Assembly (NCBI GenBank): GCA_963812135.1
Contig: CAWETU010000001.1
Span: forward strand, 544,001 to 608,000
DNA from: Vulcanimicrobiota bacterium
Lineage (GTDB): Bacteria > Vulcanimicrobiota > Vulcanimicrobiia > Eremiobacterales > Eremiobacteraceae
Direction: 5' to 3'
DNA: 64,000 nt
Shown: piece after piece, positions 1 through 18,877 of the stretch
Numbering within the stretch: the first letter of the stretch is position 1
Layout: the number at the start of each line of letters is the position of its first letter
The notes under the pieces: generated by a model
What the model saw: only the letters and a program-made list of their open reading frames with translations
Database searches by the model: none
What the model was told of the DNA's origin: nothing
Position numbers and translations under genes: made by a program

Positions 1-225
1 TACGAACAGGACGTCGTGCGGCGCGAATTCATGCCGCTCGTCGCCGTTGCGAAACCGCCCGCGGCCTGAGATCACGATGTAGAGCTCGTCGCGATCGTGC
101 GGCTTTTGCGCGTCGCGGCCGCGCGGCGCATAATACTCAAGCTCCATCGTGCCGTGCTTGAGGAGCAATGCGGCCAATCCGCTTGGCGGCGTCGCCGCGG
201 CTTGAGCGACGGTGAAACGGCTCAT
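1..225 (-). CDS. Cupin domain protein (partial, runs off the window start)
   Basis: Not in ORF track. Minus strand reads MSRFTVAQAAATPPSGLAALLLKHGTMELEYYAPRGRDAQKPHDRDELYIVISGRGRFRNGDERHEFAPHDVLFV..., cupin motif 1 (PHxxDExYxVxSG). GGAG 7 nt upstream of ATG 225; alternative ATG at 231. Confidence 0.85.
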   Translation of the reverse strand, partial: MSRFTVAQAAATPPSGLAALLLKHGTMELEYYAPRGRDAQKPHDRDELYIVISGRGRFRNGDERHEFAPHDVLFV

Positions 226-7571: not shown

Positions 7572-8048
7572 CTAGCCCTTGATGCCGATGCGCTCGGCTT
7601 TGGGCACTTTCGGTGCCGGTATCATGACCTTCAGGATACCGTACTCGTATTCGGCCTCGACCTTCTTCGGATCGATCGGCTCTGGGAAGCTCAGAGTGCG
7701 TAGGAACTCGCCACGCTGACGTTCGCGGTAGATGTACTGCGGGCGATTTTCTTTCACCAGCTCTTCGCTATGAGCCGTGATCGTAAGCGCTTTACCGCTG
7801 GCCTGGATCTCGATGTTCTCCTTTTTCACTCCAGGGAGCGCGCACTCCACCACATACGTCCCGTCTTTCTGGTAGACGTCGAGGTCGAAGCTGAACGTAG
7901 GCGTGCGAAATGCTGTTTGCGCTGCGGGTAGCCAGCTGAAAAGCGGTTTGAAGCCTTCTCCAAGCCGGGTGAACTCCGCAAATGGGTCAATCGTTTGCAT
8001 TTTTTGCAGTTCGGTCGAACCATTCTCGCCATTAATCATGGTCTTCAT
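7572..8048 (-). CDS. Small heat shock protein (Hsp20/alpha-crystallin)
   Basis: LDVYQ..YVVECALPGV..ENIEI, RERQRGEFLRTLSFP, AEYEYGILKV; strong RBS AAGGAGG before ATG 8048. Confidence 0.93.
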   Translation of the reverse strand: MKTMINGENGSTELQKMQTIDPFAEFTRLGEGFKPLFSWLPAAQTAFRTPTFSFDLDVYQKDGTYVVECALPGVKKENIEIQASGKALTITAHSEELVKENRPQYIYRERQRGEFLRTLSFPEPIDPKKVEAEYEYGILKVMIPAPKVPKAERIGIKG

Positions 8049-8133: not shown

Positions 8134-8628
8134 CTACAGCGAATTGCGACTTTCGGCGCGCTCGATCCGGAAATCATAGCAGCCAGCTTCAGTGTCGCGC
8201 ACATGGATGTAGTCCACATCCGGCCGCGCTAGCAGTCGCTCCACATGAGCGTCGATCGCCCCATTCGTGCCGTACGCTTGTGCGACAAGCCGTCGACCAC
8301 TGCTGTACGCGTTGAAGGTCAATTCGTGTGCGCGCAGGTCCGAAGGGAAGCCCGCCGTTTCCGGGTAGCGCTCGCAGGCACGCGAATGCACGAACACGGG
8401 ACCCGGCAACGGTAGGCGCTCGAGATCCGTAAACGGATCGTACGTGAAGAGGACGCGCGGCTCAGCGCCGACTACGAACTCGCGTAGGCAGTGCCGGCAC
8501 GGTCCGTACCCCTTCGCGACTTCTTCCGAGGCCGGATGGTCGTAGCGCGGCGAGCGCATCGTCGCGCGCACCGTTTCGACGACGTCTGTCGGAATCGCCA
8601 CCACGCGAACACCAAGATTCTCCATCAT
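8134..8628 (-). CDS. DUF1203 domain protein
   Basis: PCRHCL, LFTYDPF..PLPGPVFVH..C, YIHVR...GCY pattern; GGAGG RBS; start overlaps the stop of the upstream microprotein. Confidence 0.8.
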   Translation of the reverse strand: MMENLGVRVVAIPTDVVETVRATMRSPRYDHPASEEVAKGYGPCRHCLREFVVGAEPRVLFTYDPFTDLERLPLPGPVFVHSRACERYPETAGFPSDLRAHELTFNAYSSGRRLVAQAYGTNGAIDAHVERLLARPDVDYIHVRDTEAGCYDFRIERAESRNSL

Positions 8629-8816
8629 CCAAGCCCTCCGAGCAACAACTGGCCGGCGGCGACGAGCGCTCGCCCGAGACGCGTGCGCCAACGTACGAGC
8701 GCCGACGTCGTGTGATGTCGTTGCGCGCGCATCTTCGCGCCGAGCCGATGTCGCGCGATCTCTGCGCTCATCGCTTCATGCTGCTGCCTGACGAGATCCA
8801 ACACATAGCGCTCCAT
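8625..8816 (-). CDS. Small basic helical protein, paralog 2 (63 aa)
   Basis: 24/60 identical in gapless alignment with the 8870-9088 product; ATGA coupling to DUF1203. Confidence 0.75.
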   Translation of the reverse strand: MERYVLDLVRQQHEAMSAEIARHRLGAKMRAQRHHTTSALVRWRTRLGRALVAAGQLLLGGLG

Positions 8817-8869: not shown

Positions 8870-9088
8870 TTACCGCAGCGCGTTCGCAGACTCGGACGCG
8901 CGTTCGTCACCCTCGATCACCCGACCGACACCGATGACGATGCGCCCCAAGGCGCGTCGCCAACGAGCGGCGACGCTTGGTCCTGACACGCGCCGTGCAC
9001 GCAATGCGATGCCCAGACGATGGCGCACGATCTCTTCGCGCACCTCATCCTGCCGCTCGCGTACGGCTCGCAACCAATCCCGATCCAT
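8870..9088 (-). CDS. Small basic helical protein, paralog 1 (72 aa)
   Basis: Strong RBS GGAGGTGA before ATG 9088; shares EIxRHRLG..RA.R..RWR..LGR with paralog 2. Confidence 0.8.
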   Translation of the reverse strand: MDRDWLRAVRERQDEVREEIVRHRLGIALRARRVSGPSVAARWRRALGRIVIGVGRVIEGDERASESANALR

Positions 9089-9123
9089 GTTCTCACCTCC
9101 CCTCTTGCCAGCGCGAGAGAGAT

Positions 9124-9160
9124 AAAACAACGAGGCCCCCGCTTAGTGCGGAGGCCTCGT
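9124..9160 (-). terminator. Intrinsic terminator / attenuator
   Basis: Minus RNA ACGAGGCCUCCGC-ACUAA-GCGGGGGCCUCGU then UGUUUU. The one non-WC pair is a G-U wobble only on this strand. Confidence 0.85.
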
Positions 9161-9187
9161 CGGCATCGATTGGGTCTTGCGACCCGC

Positions 9188-9319
9188 TCACACACCGTTA
9201 AGCACATCTCCGCACGGAACGACGCTCTTCACGCTCGCATCGAGTGCAAGCGTGGCGCACAGCTGCGCGATCCCCAGCGGGGTCGCGTTCACTGTCAGCA
9301 GCGTCGTCATGTTGCTCAA
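9188..9319 (-). CDS. Putative attenuator leader peptide (43 aa from TTG 9319, 40 aa from ATG 9310)
   Basis: AAGGAGA RBS 6 nt before TTG; peptide MSNMTTLLTVNATPLGIAQLCATLALDASVKSVVPCGDVLNGV; stop 27 nt before the terminator. Confidence 0.65.
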   Translation of the reverse strand: MSNMTTLLTVNATPLGIAQLCATLALDASVKSVVPCGDVLNGV

Positions 9320-9378
9320 AAAATGTCTCCTTTGCTGTTTTTGCCGAACAAAATTCGGCGGCCACAACACAGATTGCC

Positions 9379-9407
9379 ATGGTAACACGCCTTTGCGAGG
9401 TTGTCAA
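9379..9407 (-). promoter_or_regulatory. Sigma70-type promoter for the leader transcript
   Basis: TTGACA (9407-9402), 17 nt, TACCAT (9384-9379) with TGn extended -10. Confidence 0.8.
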
Positions 9408-9433
9408 ACCCGCGCGCACGAAGCCGCGCGATT

Positions 9434-12400
9434 ATGCGCCGATTATTTGATGCAATCATAATGTCTGTCGTCGTGCTCAGCGTCGCTGTCCCGGTCTTAG
9501 CGGACACACAACCGTACGCCAATCTGAAATGGCGCGCGATCGGGCCGGCGCTCTCCGGCGGACGTGCCGCAGCGGTCGCTGGCACGGATGCTGATCCGCT
9601 TCTTTACTATGCGGGAGCGGCCGGCGGCGGCATCTGGCGTTCCGACGATGCGGGCTCGACATGGACCGCGGTCTACGAAGACTTGCCCGTCAACGCGATC
9701 GGCGCGATCGCGATCGCGCCATCAAACAAGCGCGTCGTCTGGGTCGGCACCGGCGAATCCAATCCGCGCAACGACATCTCGTGGGGCGATGGCGTCTGGG
9801 TCAGCACAAACGGCGGCTCTTCATGGCAGCACCGCGGTTTGGAAGCGACCGCGCACATCTCCAAGATACTCGTCGATCCGCACAATCCCAACATCGCGCT
9901 GGTCGGTGCATTGGGCGACATCTTCAAAGACAGCGAGGAGCGCGGTGTTTTCCGGACGGTTGATGGCGGCAAGACCTGGACGAAGACGCTGTACGTCGGT
10001 CCGAGCAGCGGCGCATCGGATCTATCGTGGGATCCAAGCCATCCGAACATCGTCTACGCAGGCGTCTGGCAGATCCGCCGCTTGCCCTGGTCGCTGGAGA
10101 GCGGCGGGCCCGCTGGCGGCGTGTATCGCTCGAGCGACAGTGGACAGACGTGGACCAAATTGTCGGGCAACGGATTGCCGTCGGGTGACACCGGCCGCAT
10201 CGGCGTCGCGGTCGCGCCCAATCATCCGAATCGCGTCTACGCGCTCATCCAATCAAAAGAGGGCGTGCTGTGGCGCTCGGACGACGGGGGCAATCAGTGG
10301 CGGCTCGTCAGCTCGAACACGCTGCTCAACCAGCGGCCGTTCTATTTCAGCCGGCTGGTCGTCGATCCGACGAATCCCGATCATTTCATCGCGCTCTCCG
10401 AGTACATGGCTGAAAGCCGCGATGGCGGGCGGACGGCGAAGAAGATCGCGAAAGCCATCCATGTCGACAATCACGACGCATGGTGGTCGCGCGACGGCCG
10501 GCGGCTGATCGATGCGAACGATGGCGGCGTCGCATGGTCGATGGACGGCGCGAAGACGTGGAGTGCGGCCTCTAATATGCCGATCGGGCAGATCTATAAG
10601 CTTGGCTACGATGAGCAGGTGCCGTATCACGTCTGCGGCGGCCTGCAGGACAACACGACTTTCTGCGGCCCGTCCAACAGTAACGACGCGGGTGGCATCC
10701 TCAATCGCGACTGGATCAGCGTCAACGGCGGTGACGGCAACTTCGTCTGGCCGGATCCACTGGACCCACAGCTGGTGTGGAACGCGACGGAGAACGGCAC
10801 GGTCTCTATCTTCGATATGCGCTCCAAACAGAACGTCGATGTGGAGCCGTACCCGCGCGACTTCAACGGCATGGCGATCGAAGGCGTCAAATATCGTTGG
10901 AATTGGACGACGCCGATAACATTCTCGCCGCAAGACCCGCACATCGCGTATGTGGGCGCAAACGTCGTGTTCAAATCAACGGACCGCGGCCGCCACTGGA
11001 CCCCGATCAGTCCGGATCTCACGCTCAACGACAAGGCGCATCAGCAGATCTCGGGCGGCCCGATCAATCCCGACGTCTCGGGCGCCGAGGTCTACGACAC
11101 GGTGACCGAAATATCGCCGTCACCGGTGCAAGCCGGCCTCATCTGGGTCGGTACCGACGACGGCCTGATCCAATTGACGAGCGACGGGGGAGACCACTGG
11201 AAGAACGTCACGATGTCCGGCCTTGCTCCCTACGGCTTCGTGCAGAGTATTGATCCGTCGACGCATGCGGCGGGCACCGCATACGTCGCGATCGACCGGC
11301 ACACGATGGGAGACCGCGCGCCGTACGCATTCGTGACCGACGACTACGGCGCTTCGTGGCGATCGATCGCGGCGAACCTGCCGGCGGACCAACCGGTGCG
11401 TGCATTGCGGCAAGATCCGCGCAACGCGAATATCCTGTATGCAGGAACCGAGCAAGGCATTTGGATCTCTTTCGATCGCGGCACATCGTGGCAGTCGATC
11501 AAGTTGAATCTGCCGACCGCCTCGGTGCGCGATATCCGCGTGCACCCAGTCGCCAATGATCTCATCATCGCGACGCACGGGCGCTCGATGTTCATCCTCG
11601 ATGACCTTGCGCCGTTGCAAGACCTCCAGCCGGCACAAACCGCCGGAACGTATCTGTTCCAGCCGCGAACCGCGTATCTGTGGTGGCAGTGGACGAGCGA
11701 AGACCTGCAAGACAGCACGGTACCCGCGAACGAGTTCGCCGGCGACAATCCCGACGTCGGCGTGATGGTCTCGTTCTATCTCGCCAAACCGGCGCCAAAG
11801 CGCCCGACGATCGATGTGCTGGACAGCAGCGGACATCTCGTGCGCCGCCTCACCGGTACGCATCTCGTGAGCGACAAGCCCGAGTATTACGTCACCAACA
11901 AATCGGGCGTCAACCGCCTCACCTGGAACTTGACCGAAACTGGACCGGTCAAGCGCCTGAGCGCGCCCGCGAAGTATCAAGGATCGGACGACGGCGCAGT
12001 CGTCGTACCAGGCACGTATACGATCGTGTTGCGAGCGAATGGCCGAACTCTAAGCCGCAGCATCAAAGTCGTGGCCGATCCACGTTCGCCCTGGTCGCAA
12101 GCGGATTACATCGAGCGCTATCATTTCGACGTCGAGCTCAACAACGAGTTGTCACAGATCGATACGGCGCTCAACTCGATCGACGCGATCAGGCGACAGA
12201 TCAACGCTGCGCTCAAACCGCTGCGTGCAGCGGCGACGCCATCACCGGTCGTCACGCAAGGCGACGCGCTGCTCGCGCGGCTGAGCGCGCTCGAGTCGGA
12301 GATGACGTCGAACCCCCACAACGACGAAGACAGCATCCTGTACGCGGATAAGGTGCGCGAACGGATCCTTGCACTCCAAGGGAACCTCAGCGAGTCGCAG

Positions 12401-12553
12401 CAACCGCCGTTCGCAGCGCATCGCGAGCAGGCAGACGAAATCCACGCGGACGTCGAGCGGGTCTTGGGCGACTACCAGAAGCTAGTCGCGACGGACGTCG
12501 CGTCGTTCAATGCCGCGCTGCGCGTGGCCGGGATCGCGCCGCTGAAGTCATAA
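9434..12553 (+). CDS. Secreted VPS10/BNR-repeat beta-propeller protein (sialidase/GH74-like fold)
   Basis: Signal peptide; many Asp-box repeats ([32 protein letters not shown]); [12 protein letters not shown]; helical C-terminus. Confidence 0.88.
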
Positions 12554-14229: not shown

Positions 14230-14322
14230 GGAGTTCGCGCCCGGGAAACTAACCTTGAGCGCCCGCGTCGCAGGGCGCCCTTGAGCGCCGGCGGGTTTCT
14301 CGTAATCGGAGGCTCGAGCATC

Positions 14323-15573
14323 GTGCGCTTTGCAAACGATCGGCATCATCGTCTTTTCGCATTCTTCGCCGGCATCACCGCGGCAGCGATCCTCGCCGCT
14401 ACGGGCGCTGCCAGCATCTCGCAACCCGCCGCCGCAGACGACGTCATCACGTTCGGCGCGGCGCTGTCGGCGACCGGGCGCGATTCGCGCGAAGGCGCGC
14501 TGACCAAAGAAGGCTACGATTTCTGGAAGGACTATGTCAACGCGCAGGGCGGCATCAAAGTCGCCGGCAAGCTGTACAAAGTCGACATCAAATATTACGA
14601 CGACGCGAGCGACCCGACGACGTCTGCGAAACTCGTCGAGCGCCTGATCACGCAGGATAACATCAAGTTCATCCTCGCGCCATACGGTTCGAGCGCAACC
14701 GCAGCTGCCGCAGCGATTTGCGAGAAATATCAAGTGCCGATGGTCGACCCAAACGGCGCCGCAGAAGTGATCTTCAGCCGCGGCTACCACTACACGTTCG
14801 CGATCCTAAGCCCAGCCAAGAAATATCTCGTCGGCATTCTCGAGCTCGCACAGACCATGAAGCCGCGGCCGACGACCCTCGCGGTGCTCGCGGCCAACGA
14901 CGCGTTCTCGATCGAAGTCGCGGGCGGTCTTCGCGACTACGCCAAGGGGAATGGCTTCAATGAGGTGTTCTATTCGGAATACCCGCCCGACACCAAGGAC
15001 GTTGCGACGCTCCTCACCCAGGTCAAGGCGAAGAATCCGGACATCATCCTTGGTTCGGGTCATTTGCAGGACTCGCTGTTGATCATGCGCGCGGCCAAGG
15101 ACCAGAACGTGCAATCGAAGATCATCGGATTCTCGGTCGGGCCGTCCACCCCCGACTTCATCACCAGCCTCGGCAACGACTCGAACGGCGTGATGGGCGG
15201 CGCCCAATGGACGACCGCGCTGACGTACACGGATCCGGTCTTCGGCAGTGCGCAGCGGTACACGCGGCTGTTCCAAGCCAAGTACGGCCATTTGCCGGAC
15301 TACCACAACGCCGAGTCGACCGCAGCAGGCGAGACGTTCCAGTACGCGATGCTCAAGGCCGGCAGCCTCGACCCGGCCAAGGTGCGCGACGCGCTCGCGA
15401 CGCTCGACATCGACACGTTCTATGGAAAGATCAAGTTCGACAGCCGCGGCGTGAACATGTATAAGCCGATGGCGGTCGAACAGATCCAAAAGGGCGCGCA
15501 CGAGACTGTGTGGCCGGCCGATGCGGCCAACGCGAAAGCGGTCTATCCGCTGCCGCCGTGGGGCAAGCGGTAA
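14323..15573 (+). CDS. Branched-chain amino acid ABC transporter substrate-binding protein
   Basis: Signal peptide; VNAQGGI..YYDDASDP; PYGS; LivJ/LivK-like fold. GGAGG before GTG 14323. Confidence 0.9.
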   Translation: MRFANDRHHRLFAFFAGITAAAILAATGAASISQPAAADDVITFGAALSATGRDSREGALTKEGYDFWKDYVNAQGGIKVAGKLYKVDIKYYDDASDPTTSAKLVERLITQDNIKFILAPYGSSATAAAAAICEKYQVPMVDPNGAAEVIFSRGYHYTFAILSPAKKYLVGILELAQTMKPRPTTLAVLAANDAFSIEVAGGLRDYAKGNGFNEVFYSEYPPDTKDVATLLTQVKAKNPDIILGSGHLQDSLLIMRAAKDQNVQSKIIGFSVGPSTPDFITSLGNDSNGVMGGAQWTTALTYTDPVFGSAQRYTRLFQAKYGHLPDYHNAESTAAGETFQYAMLKAGSLDPAKVRDALATLDIDTFYGKIKFDSRGVNMYKPMAVEQIQKGAHETVWPADAANAKAVYPLPPWGKR

Positions 15574-16450
15574 CGGCGTAGCCACGCTCTACATCCAAGT
15601 CCTCATCAACGGGCTGCTCGTAGGCGGCATTTATGCCGCCTGCGCGCTCGGTTTTTCGCTCGTGTGGGGCATCATGAACGTGATCAACATCGCGCATGGC
15701 GCGTTCATCATGCTCGGCGCGTACGCGTCGTACTGGCTGTTCGTCGGGCCGATGCACATGGATCCGCTGCTCTCCATCCCGCTTTCGATGGCCGTGATGT
15801 TCGTGCTCGCCTACATCATACAGCGCTTCATCGTGAACCAGGTGATCCGCGCGCCGATCCTCGCGACGTTCTTGCTCACGTTCGGCCTTTCGATCCTCAT
15901 CGCAAACCTCGCCCAAGTGCTCTGGTCATCCGACATCCGTTCGATCACCACGGCATACACGGGATCGGGCTTGGTGGTCGGCGGCCTGACGGTGCCGTGG
16001 GTGAGGCTGTGGACGCTGGTCATCGCCATCGTGCTCACGCTCGCACTGCAGGCGTTCATGACGCGCACCAAGATCGGGCGCGCGATCCGCGCCACGAGCA
16101 TGGACGTCGACGCGGCCCGCCTCTCCGGCGTTGATGTTGCGAACATCTACGCGCTGACGTTCGGCATCGGCGGCGCGCTGGCCGCGGCGGCGGGCTCGCT
16201 GATCAGCGTGTCGTACGCGATCACGCCGACCATGGGCGATTCGTTCGTCGTGCGCGCCTTCGTCGTGGCGGTGCTCGGCGGACTGGGCAACGTCACCGGC
16301 GCGCTCGTCGGCGGCTTGGTGTACGGCATCATCGAGTCGTTCGGAGCGCTTTGGTTCGGCGAGGGCATGAAAGACGTGGTCGCCATGGTCGTGCTCTTGC
16401 TGGTGCTGCTGTTCCGTCCGTACGGTTTGGTAGGAAGAGCGACCGCCTAA
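15521..16450 (+). CDS. livH: BCAA ABC transporter permease (LivH-like)
   Basis: QVLINGLLVGGIYA, INIAHG, GRAIRA, VLGGLG. Start uncertain: homology begins near 15578. Confidence 0.9.
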   Translation: MRPTRKRSIRCRRGASGNGVATLYIQVLINGLLVGGIYAACALGFSLVWGIMNVINIAHGAFIMLGAYASYWLFVGPMHMDPLLSIPLSMAVMFVLAYIIQRFIVNQVIRAPILATFLLTFGLSILIANLAQVLWSSDIRSITTAYTGSGLVVGGLTVPWVRLWTLVIAIVLTLALQAFMTRTKIGRAIRATSMDVDAARLSGVDVANIYALTFGIGGALAAAAGSLISVSYAITPTMGDSFVVRAFVVAVLGGLGNVTGALVGGLVYGIIESFGALWFGEGMKDVVAMVVLLLVLLFRPYGLVGRATA

Positions 16451-17410
16451 ATGCAGGCTGGCCAGCGGCTGACATACGCGATCATCGCGCTGCTCGCGCT
16501 CTCGGCCCTGCTGCCTCCGCACCTCAACGGCAACTGGGTGCACGTGCTCACGCTGTTCTTCATGATGGCGTCGCTCGCCCAAGCGTGGAATCTGATCGGC
16601 GGCTATGCCGGCTATGCGAGCTTCGGCAACGTCACGTTTTTCGGCGTCGGCGCGTATTGCTGCGCGTATGCGATGAACGTGCTGCTGTGGCCGTTCTGGG
16701 GCGCGGCCCTGCTCTCGCTCGCGCTCGCGTCGGCGCTCGCCGCGCTGTTCGGCTGGCCGATTCTGCGGTTACGCGGCCACTACTTCGCGATCGCGACGCT
16801 GGGCATCGCGATCGGCATGGGGGCGCTGGTCGCCGAATTGCCGGCGCTCGGCAAGGGCAGCGGCATGACGTTGCCGATCAACAGCAACTTCCATTTCTTC
16901 TATTGGACGATGCTCGGCATCCTGATCTCGAGCATCGTCTTCACGGCGCTGATCTCGCGCTCGCGTTTCGGCTACGCGCTCGTCGCCATCCGCGAGAACG
17001 AAGAGGCCGCCGCGGTGCTCGGCATCAATGCGCCCCGCATGAAGGTCGCCGCATGGGCCGCGTCGGCCGCGATCACCGGTGCAGTGGGCGCGACCTACGC
17101 GTATTGGAACAGCTTCATCGATCCGCCGACCGTGTTCGATCTGAACTTCAACGTCCTTATGATCATCATGACCCTGCTCGGCGGCGCGGGCAGCGTCGTC
17201 GGTCCCGCGATCGGTTCGTTCATCTTGAGCGCCATCGGCGAATATCTGGGGGCGCAGTCGGTGTCGCCGTGGCACACGGTCGTGCTGGGCGCGATCATCG
17301 TCATCGTCGTCATCGTGCTGCCGCGCGGCATCATGCCGTATCTGACCGGCGGCCTGCGCGCATGGAACTTGAACGCGCTGCGCGCCCAGCTGCGGGCGAC
17401 GCGGATATGA
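16451..17410 (+). CDS. livM: BCAA ABC transporter permease (LivM-like)
   Basis: WNLIGGYAGYASFG, LRLRGHYFAIATL, AIRENE.AA. Confidence 0.9.
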   Translation: MQAGQRLTYAIIALLALSALLPPHLNGNWVHVLTLFFMMASLAQAWNLIGGYAGYASFGNVTFFGVGAYCCAYAMNVLLWPFWGAALLSLALASALAALFGWPILRLRGHYFAIATLGIAIGMGALVAELPALGKGSGMTLPINSNFHFFYWTMLGILISSIVFTALISRSRFGYALVAIRENEEAAAVLGINAPRMKVAAWAASAAITGAVGATYAYWNSFIDPPTVFDLNFNVLMIIMTLLGGAGSVVGPAIGSFILSAIGEYLGAQSVSPWHTVVLGAIIVIVVIVLPRGIMPYLTGGLRAWNLNALRAQLRATRI

Positions 17411-18183
17411 GCGCGATGGCGGCACCGGCGCTCGCGCCCGCGGTCGAGGCCAAGGATGTCGTCGTGCGCTTCGGCGGCCTGGTGGCGCTCGACGGCGTGT
17501 CGCTTTCCGTGGCGCGCGGTGAGATCTTAGGGCTCATCGGACCCAATGGCGCCGGCAAGACCACATTGTTGTCGGTGATGTCCGGCACGCAGCGCCCATC
17601 GTCGGGCGCCGTCTTCGTCGAAGGCCACGACATCACACGCGTGCCCACGTATCGCATCATCAGGCTGGGCTTAGCTCGCACGTTCCAAGTGGTCAAACCG
17701 TTCGCCAATCTGACGGTGCGCGAAAACGTCGCCGTCGGCGCGCTCTTCGGACGCCACGGCACAAGCCGTTCATCGCGCGCCGCATTCGCGGCTGCTGACA
17801 TGGTGCTCGAACGCGTCGGGCTGGCGCCCGAAGCCAAGCGAGCGGCGTCCGAGCTGACGCTCGCCGGCCGCAAGCGTCTCGAGATCGCCAAGGCGCTGGC
17901 GACTGATCCCGAAGTGCTGCTGCTCGACGAAGTGATGGCGGGCCTCACGCCGCATGAAGTCGATCGAGCGATGGATCTACTGCGCGACGTGAATGGCAAC
18001 GGTGTCACGCTGGTCGTCGTCGAGCACGTCATGAAGGCCATTATGGGCATCTCGCAGCGCGTGGTCGTGCTGCATCAAGGGCGACTCATCGCGCAAGGGT
18101 TGCCCGCAGCCGTCGTCGCCGATCCGCTCGTCATCGAAGCGTATCTCGGCACGCGGTATGCCGGAGGCGATCGCGGTGCTTGA
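17407..18183 (+). CDS. livG: BCAA ABC transporter ATPase (LivG-like)
   Basis: FGGLVAL, GPNGAGKTT, ARTFQ, LLLDE, VEH, YLG; ATGA overlap with livM. Confidence 0.92.
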   Translation: MSAMAAPALAPAVEAKDVVVRFGGLVALDGVSLSVARGEILGLIGPNGAGKTTLLSVMSGTQRPSSGAVFVEGHDITRVPTYRIIRLGLARTFQVVKPFANLTVRENVAVGALFGRHGTSRSSRAAFAAADMVLERVGLAPEAKRAASELTLAGRKRLEIAKALATDPEVLLLDEVMAGLTPHEVDRAMDLLRDVNGNGVTLVVVEHVMKAIMGISQRVVVLHQGRLIAQGLPAAVVADPLVIEAYLGTRYAGGDRGA

Positions 18184-18877
18184 GGTCGCCGGCCTCGACG
18201 CGGGCTACGGTGAGGCGCAAGTGTTGTGGGATGTGTCGCTGCGCGTGGACGCGCGCGAGATCGTCGCGCTCGTCGGCGCGAACGGCGCGGGCAAGACCAC
18301 TCTGCTCTCGACGATCGCAGGGTTGGTCGCGCCGTCGCGCGGTTCTATCATCTTCGACGCCGCGGAGATCGCAGGGCGCACGCCCGAGAAAATCGTCGCG
18401 ACCGGTATCAGTCTGGTGCCGCAAGGGCGGCGCCTCTTCGGCGGCCTCACCGTGCACGAGAACCTGCTCATGGGCGCGTTTCACCGGCACGATACCGATG
18501 TTGCCGCCGACCTCGAGCACATCTACGGGCTGTTCCCGCGGTTGCGGGAGCGCGCCGACCAACTCGCAGGCACGCTGTCAGGCGGCGAGCAGCAGATGTG
18601 CGCGATCGGCCGGGCGCTCATGGCGCGTCCGAAGCTGCTCCTGGTCGACGAGCTCTCGCTCGGCCTGGCGCCGATCATCGTCCAGCAATTGCTCGAGGTG
18701 TTGGCCGGGCTGCGTCGCGACGGGATGACCATCGTGTTGGTCGAGCAGGATGTCCAAATCGCGCTCGAGACCGCCGATCGTGGGTACGTCATCGAGAACG
18801 GCCGGGTGACCCTCACCGGGCCCGCGAGGACCGTGCTGGCCGACCCGCACGTGAAGACCGCATATTTGGGGCTCTAA
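18158..18877 (+). CDS. livF: BCAA ABC transporter ATPase (LivF-like)
   Basis: GANGAGKTT, LFPRL.ER, LSGGEQQM, SLGLAP, VEQ. Confidence 0.92.
   Translation: MPEAIAVLEVAGLDAGYGEAQVLWDVSLRVDAREIVALVGANGAGKTTLLSTIAGLVAPSRGSIIFDAAEIAGRTPEKIVATGISLVPQGRRLFGGLTVHENLLMGAFHRHDTDVAADLEHIYGLFPRLRERADQLAGTLSGGEQQMCAIGRALMARPKLLLVDELSLGLAPIIVQQLLEVLAGLRRDGMTIVLVEQDVQIALETADRGYVIENGRVTLTGPARTVLADPHVKTAYLGL

Follow-up and report, generated by a model that had tools for sequence, protein, structure and literature searches.

The window, meaning the whole stretch of 64,000 nucleotides that was analysed, carries on its minus strand a short uORF (upstream open reading frame) and an intrinsic terminator between a promoter and the gene of a small arginine-rich protein, p1. 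The features are listed below from the promoter downwards, with coordinates numbered along the window:

9379..9407, minus strand: sigma70-type promoter, TTGACA-17-TACCAT, 10/12 consensus
9343..9359, minus strand: 5′ leader hairpin of 7 bp; loop variable, one compensatory change in the genus
9326..9332, minus strand: Shine-Dalgarno (SD) sequence of the uORF, AAGGAGA
9188..9319, minus strand: uORF of 43 codons from TTG 9319 to TGA 9190-9188; frame and stop position conserved, peptide not
9218..9308, minus strand: predicted multibranch RNA structure within the uORF, which closes 2 nt ahead of the antiterminator strand
9188..9215, minus strand: antiterminator 5′ strand; core GTGCGGAG at 9215-9208 plus inner helices up to the stop codon
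9172..9185, minus strand: hairpin nested in the antiterminator; covaries
9146..9169, minus strand: antiterminator 3′ strand, identical with the 5′ arm and loop of the terminator; from folding
9118..9162, minus strand: intrinsic terminator (−30.3 kcal/mol) with 15 pairs and a short U tail
8870..9088, minus strand: p1, 72-aa Arg-rich two-helix protein without Pfam or NCBIfam family; invariant target of the leader
8625..8816, minus strand: p2, 63-aa paralogue of p1 (40% identity), present only in some genomes of the genus
8134..8625, minus strand: DUF1203 gene (PF06718), behind p1 in 5/7 same-genus genomes
7572..8048, minus strand: Hsp20 gene, at this place only in the lineage of the window

The original prediction had described an ilv-like leader-peptide attenuator in front of non-biosynthetic genes. 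Its promoter, SD sequence, ORF, hairpin, complementary segments and SD of the next gene were all recovered at their places on the minus strand, the last of these at 9102-9094 before the p1 start codon (ATG 9088). The leader ORF ends as described with TGA 9190-9188, but the supposed N-terminus MTTLL is internal: relatives retain TTG 9319 as start codon, which follows the SD by 6 nt, whereas ATG 9310 has a spacing of 15 nt and is not retained. A terminator is likewise present, though not with 13 bp and a U tract; its stem (9162-9128) has 15 pairs when G-U pairs are included, and its U tail is short and interrupted. The SD of the uORF is predicted to fold weakly, its partner being either the U-run ahead of the start or the antiterminator strand.

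Two promoter-like sites were found within 1.5 kb, compared with 0.3 in shuffled sequences. Promoter, SD-led short ORF and antiterminator core occur together at one of the 1983 terminator-like hairpins of the genome, namely the window leader, and a genome scan found no paralogous leaders elsewhere. The 5′ hairpin was considered as an operator and rejected, its loop length being variable and the only similar site in the genome (C5) following another gene without a leader.

The genes after p1 vary between loci (DUF1203, glyoxalase, lipid desaturase, M23 peptidase) or are absent altogether, and p1 is therefore the invariant target of the leader. No ilv or leu genes lie downstream of p1 leaders at the loci examined. 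Layout and downstream genes thus support the earlier description of a translated-type leader with a putative switch before non-biosynthetic genes.

Conservation of the leader across loci

The same layout was found upstream of p1 homologues at 53/57 loci of the class Vulcanimicrobiia/Eremiobacteria, drawn from 51 genomes and one contig; these counts include kin and are not independent. The first set comprised 31 loci (the window, 29 other genome loci and 1 metagenome contig), filtered for a length of at least 20 and a stop before the terminator, and excluded the weak matches L022-L026, L029, L030, L032 (no upstream DNA) and L033 (leader same as L005). The held-out set comprised 26 further matches obtained afterwards and used without length filter, 12 weak or redundant matches not being included. 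L053 and L062 stem from genomes flagged as unpublished, and the conclusions are independent of both. Within the genus, DNA matches were obtained in 6/6 other genomes. The names carried by homologous proteins and contigs assign the group to Vulcanimicrobiota (Eremiobacterota), family Ca. Eremiobacteraceae.

All 31 leaders of the first set have (i) a promoter of the form TTGAC[AT]-16..18-TAnnnT, which is kept in 7/7 same-genus leaders, (ii) an SD sequence, (iii) a uORF of 23-44 codons, and (iv) a terminator 18-38 nt past the stop. A stop 15-40 nt before the terminator is found in the SD-led frame in 31/31 cases, compared with 2 and 8 for the other frames. In the held-out set, a distal promoter and a first SD-led ORF of 22-44 aa are present at 22/26 loci, and the stop falls 10-45 nt before the automatically called terminator in 20/22 (other frames 2 and 5); two held-out terminators were mis-called by the script and are visible by eye. 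Of the four leaderless loci, two are second copies that directly follow a different gene; the others are third-family genes whose promoter is close.

Pairing between the end of the uORF and the terminator arm is conserved alongside the layout. In 30/31 nascent folds of the first set, the top of the arm finds its partner within the final 16 codons, compared with 9% of codon-shuffled controls; the held-out leaders give 18/22, compared with 4%. At one first-set locus, L062, no antiterminator was found. The end of a uORF pairs better with its own arm (−17.35 kcal/mol) than with mismatched arms (−14.41 kcal/mol; permutation p 5e-5, 31 loci, kin not independent), although taken singly the duplex beats its own shuffles in 12/31 leaders only. 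In an alignment of 9 leaders, 89.2% of cells pair, compared with 37-49% in slid controls and 0/500 shuffles, and 8 cells are changed on both sides. Pairing reaches 94% in the core helix, of which two pairs are altered on both strands, and the nested hairpin is paired in 95.6% of cells with both-side changes in 2/5 pairs. Covariation among relatives, which had been proposed as a check, is thus borne out by compensatory changes and conserved pairing in the aligned leaders. The companion check, conservation of the peptide, came out the other way: pN/pS of the uORF is 0.45-1.89 in 11 pairs, compared with 0-0.68 for p1, and the alignments show a peptide that drifts freely while frame and stop position are fixed.

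A freely drifting, unselected peptide and a strongly structured uORF region (leader fold z = −6.9) are also what would be expected if the reading frame were incidental to a ligand- or protein-controlled RNA switch, or to a small RNA whose end is set by the terminator. We regard this explanation as very unlikely, since an SD and a start are present in 53/53 leaders, the stop is fixed in one frame, and indels of 3 and 39 nt among the leaders are in frame. Moreover, the structure upstream of the antiterminator inside the uORF is not conserved outside the genus, and Rfam covariance models for riboswitches, T-boxes and leader families gave 0 matches at gathering score in the window, the best value for the leader (E = 0.97) belonging to unrelated families.

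The predicted antiterminator/terminator switch

We folded the window RNA cut before the terminator 3′ arm and obtained a 21-pair antiterminator between 9215-9188 and 9169-9146. The exact complementarity of GTGCGGAG (9215-9208) to CTCCGCAC (9153-9146) and the alternative folds agree with the mutually exclusive 8-nt antiterminator originally described; the 8 bp are, however, only the outer helix of the 21 pairs, which enclose a small hairpin. This nested hairpin (9172..9185) is a possible pause hairpin. As the duplex of uORF and arm in the window is by itself no better than shuffles (p = 0.35), a single sequence is insufficient and the case for the window switch is made by conservation across loci.

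We then modelled the effect of a ribosome by equilibrium folding with an assumed footprint of −15 to +13 and a 3′ arm of which 7 nt had been transcribed. The simulations covered 49 leaders, four loci without a parsed antiterminator being omitted. In the window, where the 8-bp core sits 17 nt upstream of the uORF stop, the antiterminator forms with a probability of 0.96 when the A-site is at codon 5, while the terminator forms with a probability of 1.00 when the ribosome is five codons before the stop, 0.80 when it is at the stop and 0.84 in its absence. Among the 49 leaders, the terminator exceeds 0.5 in 13 without ribosome, 12 with an early stall, 44 with the ribosome near the end and 35 with the ribosome at the stop. 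Unlike the window, 34/49 ribosome-free leaders have an antiterminator above 0.5, and in 13/49 the antiterminator prevails even when a ribosome sits at the stop. The model predicts that an early stall opens the switch and a finishing ribosome closes it.

No conserved protector (anti-antiterminator) partner emerged across the 49 leaders: the top upstream partner is none in 14, the 5′ UTR in 11, the late uORF in 10, SD/start in 7 and codons 3-12 in 7. Pairing with SD/start reaches 0.73 in the window fold; as a family-wide anti-antiterminator it was rejected, being the top partner in 7/49 only. The comparison of matched with mismatched SD/start pairing (p 0.21 for the 9 closest leaders, 0.011 for all 49, with one mis-parsed row) led us to drop it as a family feature.

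Across the loci, layout, stop-to-terminator distance and pairing are maintained, the last with covariation, the peptide drifts, and p1 is the only invariant downstream gene. We conclude that the conserved uORF with its covarying antiterminator and terminator before p1 is probably a ribosome-coupled attenuator that reports general translation stress. According to the folding predictions, a ribosome would melt the antiterminator and allow the terminator to form once it has entered the final ~10 codons, while a ribosome stalled earlier would leave the antiterminator intact, so that RNA polymerase would read into p1.

The same elements could instead set a constant low read-through or tie p1 to growth rate via ribosome supply rather than to stress. 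Near-cognate TTG or GTG starts and the weak SD hairpin would limit initiation, in line with such a role, and in three soil libraries the terminator is spanned by RNA contigs from relatives (9024-9174, 9094-9358 and 8989-9323), a weak indication given their depth of 2-3 and the fact that they may be DNA or come from stressed cells. In the model, early and late ribosome positions give sharply different outcomes, and we consider this alternative highly improbable. In the soil libraries, the contigs leave p2 and DUF1203 uncovered and represent small shares of the runs, which makes them uninformative for co-transcription.

Codon content and comparison with known attenuators

The resemblance of the RNA core to E. 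coli ilvL, the leader of ilvGMEDA, holds. In ilvL, GTGCGGGG in the Cys-Gly codons pairs with CCCCGCAC and a hairpin is nested after the stop, as in p1 leaders, and two relatives carry the exact ilvL pair. The order of uORF, antiterminator and terminator is shared with ilvL, thr and the ilvB attenuators of M. tuberculosis and C. glutamicum, the GTGCGG:CCGCAC core with ilvL, and E. coli thrL contains a similar GTGCGGG core. E. coli ilvL, cut in the loop, also folds its antiterminator, a behaviour that does not separate the two kinds; read-through by default without translation was discarded as a mark against ilv, ilvL giving the same result in the identical test.

The resemblance does not extend to the peptide. 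E. coli ilvL does begin MTxLL (MTALL in the fetched sequence), but MT.LL occurs in 1/31 p1 leaders and PCG in 2/31 (CG in 13/31), and BLASTP gave no alignment of the p1-leader uORF peptide to ilvL. Cys-Gly is a by-product of RNA pairing, because Arg-Gly appears where the pair covaries (L020). Cysteine sensing was rejected: Cys lies 5-fold over the proteome but matches the shuffle expectation (4.3 vs 4.1%). Trp, Tyr and Glu occur rarely or not at all in the uORFs.

We compared the codon content of the leaders with the proteome and with shuffled sequences. Sensing of Val and Leu, the first of two signals originally inferred, is not reflected in composition: Ile, Leu and Val (ILV) make up 22.6% of the leaders (held-out set: 21.7%), as against 22.5% for the genome, taken from 1007 long ORFs, their share varies between 8 and 41%, and 50/53 leaders have at most 4 ILV in any 8 codons (window 4), compared with 15 ILV of 31 and 7 in 8 codons in E. 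coli ilvL. A true ilv/leu-type attenuator sensing Val, Leu or Ile and recruited to non-biosynthetic genes would account for the RNA core and the nested hairpin, for the Leu and Val content above dinucleotide shuffles, and for the window uORF, in which 14/42 residues are ILV (p 0.07) and 19/42 are Ile, Leu, Val or Thr (p 0.015). We give this origin of the signal very little credence, given the proteome-like ILV content, the loss of three of the window's Leu codons in the closest relative (L031), and the appearance of ilvB leaders in the same class.

Such leaders lie directly upstream of 7/9 class ilvB genes above the cut-off (L092-L100), the other two genes sitting behind ilvC. Each of the 7 lacks an SD, begins at the transcription start or close to it, encodes 19-27 aa and has 5-7 ILV in 8 codons; at these 7/9 loci they are genuine leaderless ilv leader peptides with attenuators in Vulcanimicrobiota. 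At four ilvB loci, the other strand carries a divergent short ORF with Leu-Leu-Leu and a terminator-like hairpin, perhaps a leu leader. An ilv-looking RNA core hence does not imply amino-acid-specific sensing, and the same class keeps real ilv leaders.

The window genome (98% complete) has no ilvB match (TIGR00118) and no ilvC, leuB or thrC above the cut-off, and ilvB above the cut-off was found in 0/31 genomes of the family, possibly a sign of family-wide auxotrophy for branched-chain amino acids and Thr. A BCAA-type ABC transporter cluster followed by an IclR-like regulator (14281-18877, plus strand; ORFs read by eye) lies on the opposite strand, 5 kb away from the leader and outside its control.

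The missing thrC, ilvB, ilvC and leuB bear on a further possibility, in which the same switch is tuned to one amino acid, most likely threonine and probably imported, with early Thr codons as control codons. Thr exceeds both baselines (9.8% in the leaders vs 5.9% in the proteome and 6.3% in shuffles), it is enriched 2.5-fold in codons 2-12 (15.3 vs 6.1%) and lies upstream of the antiterminator in 30/31 leaders, and the thrL core is similar. Yet the leaders contain no Thr run, with at most 4 Thr per 8 codons in 53/53 and at most 2 in 37/53, compared with 6 in thrL; the share drops to 8.0% in the held-out set; and the target is no Thr gene. Asn and Met, which together with Thr, Leu and Val exceed the dinucleotide-shuffle baseline, rise alongside, as expected from A-rich early codons. 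Overall, we judge tuning to threonine unlikely.

General translation stress, the second signal originally inferred, thus appears to be the better supported of the two. Because the 22-44 codons are mixed and contain no control run, many causes of stalling would, by analogy with known leaders, induce p1, among them ribosome-targeting antibiotics and shortage of several amino acids; the Thr-rich start may bias the sensor.

In its working logic, the attenuator proposed here seems closest to the whiB7/wblC leader of Actinomycetota. That leader is described as combining a variable uORF in which one residue is enriched with an intrinsic terminator, and as responding when ribosomes stall because of antibiotics or because any of the encoded amino acids is lacking (10.1101/2023.06.02.543512; 10.1101/2025.10.10.681568; PMC13236596). 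Both systems have a long variable uORF without a single control run, an intrinsic terminator, an antiterminator made from the last uORF codons and a small regulated protein. They differ in that whiB7/wblC belongs to another phylum and has a WhiB target and an Ala-rich uORF; Ala in p1 leaders amounts to 11.7% compared with 12.7% in the proteome, and p1 is no WhiB, as no p1 has 4 Cys and PF02467 is absent from the genome. Unlike the E. coli ilv and thr and the M. tuberculosis and C. glutamicum ilvB attenuators, p1 leaders have neither clustered control codons nor a biosynthetic target, and the p1 leader belongs to neither the ilv nor the whiB7 family.

Two further systems are related in design. 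In S. meliloti duf1127-1, a uORF monitors translation before a small Arg-rich protein of unclear function, and attenuation is proposed to be Rho-dependent with C-rich codons (PMC12218461), whereas the p1 leader has an intrinsic terminator and a covarying antiterminator; p1 is also not a DUF1127 protein (0/53 p1-family sequences match at E <= 0.1). In B. subtilis bmrB-bmrCD, an intrinsic terminator responds to ribosome antibiotics through the translation of a leader of ~50 codons (PMC4191407); there, the terminator lies inside bmrB and the target is an ABC exporter, whereas in p1 leaders the terminator follows the stop by 18-38 nt. Loss of the start codon can lower read-through, as reported for bmrB (PMC4191407) and C. 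glutamicum ilvB (PMC11857589), with the opposite effect in M. tuberculosis whiB7.

Literature searches for Eremiobacterota or Eremiobacter with attenuation returned no paper, and looser searches none on leaders of this group. The class of mechanism is known; the leader family and its p1 target are undescribed in the libraries and papers searched. Two families of an almost uncultured class share the attenuator, and in both it is always joined to the same unnamed 70-aa protein. Since the leader tells when p1 is needed, it offers a direct handle on a widespread hypothetical family.

p1 and its gene neighbourhood

The p1 proteins have 67-76 aa, 19.5% Arg and a mean net charge of +7 and are under purifying selection. 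A p1 profile detected homologues in 29/31 genomes of the family and in 10/348 and 2/5 genomes of the two other families of the class; with a wider profile, the corresponding counts are 27/29, 28/297 and 0/5, with 0/69 in genomes of other classes. The family gave no match of weight against Pfam, NCBIfam and PDB sequences and no named cluster in the Atlas, where the nearest clusters, unnamed and from Chloroflexota, Actinomycetota and Vulcanimicrobiota, score 0.89-0.90 and serve as leads only. The AlphaFold model consists of two helices (pLDDT 68, pTM 0.29) and is uninformative; it had no Foldseek match, and generic coiled coils at Z < 6 were the only resemblances in structure.

None of the downstream genes of the loci points to translation. 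We weakly infer that p1 may be a basic helical effector or regulator of a translation-stress response. A bolder proposal, which we put forward tentatively and hold to be possible rather than probable, is that the leader serves the whole class Vulcanimicrobiia/Eremiobacteria as its switch for translation stress, with no second attenuator of this kind in the genome, and that p1 founds a family of small basic helical effectors with a WhiB7-like role in this phylum or a direct action on stalled ribosomes. The p1 look-alikes in Chloroflexota and Actinomycetota are, as unnamed Atlas clusters, leads only.

In the third family, the p1 look-alikes L086 and L087 are without a leader; their promoter is close, and a CGNR zinc finger/ABATE regulator is encoded divergently, an arrangement that would fit a p1 protein family under protein control. 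The C-terminus of p1 in the window genome and L031 (8900-8870, minus strand) differs from that of relatives, which end Leu-Pro-Cys-Asn; this usual terminus was apparently lost through a short deletion.

Between p1 and p2, a GATAGA.C-spacer-TATCAT motif (8864-8831, minus strand) is conserved at 5/7 same-genus loci and is possibly an internal promoter for p2 and DUF1203; p2 may therefore have its own promoter. The Hsp20 gene probably lies outside the p1 unit. Upstream, the divergent gene of a 1050-aa Vps10/BNR-repeat secreted protein (9401-12553, plus strand) is syntenic with the leader across the genus. Second p1 copies in genomes G023 and G008 (L064 and L065) directly follow an apparent glyoxalase/VOC gene ~16-17 kb from the leader-bearing copy, and glyoxalase genes are also found after DUF1203 at two same-genus loci.
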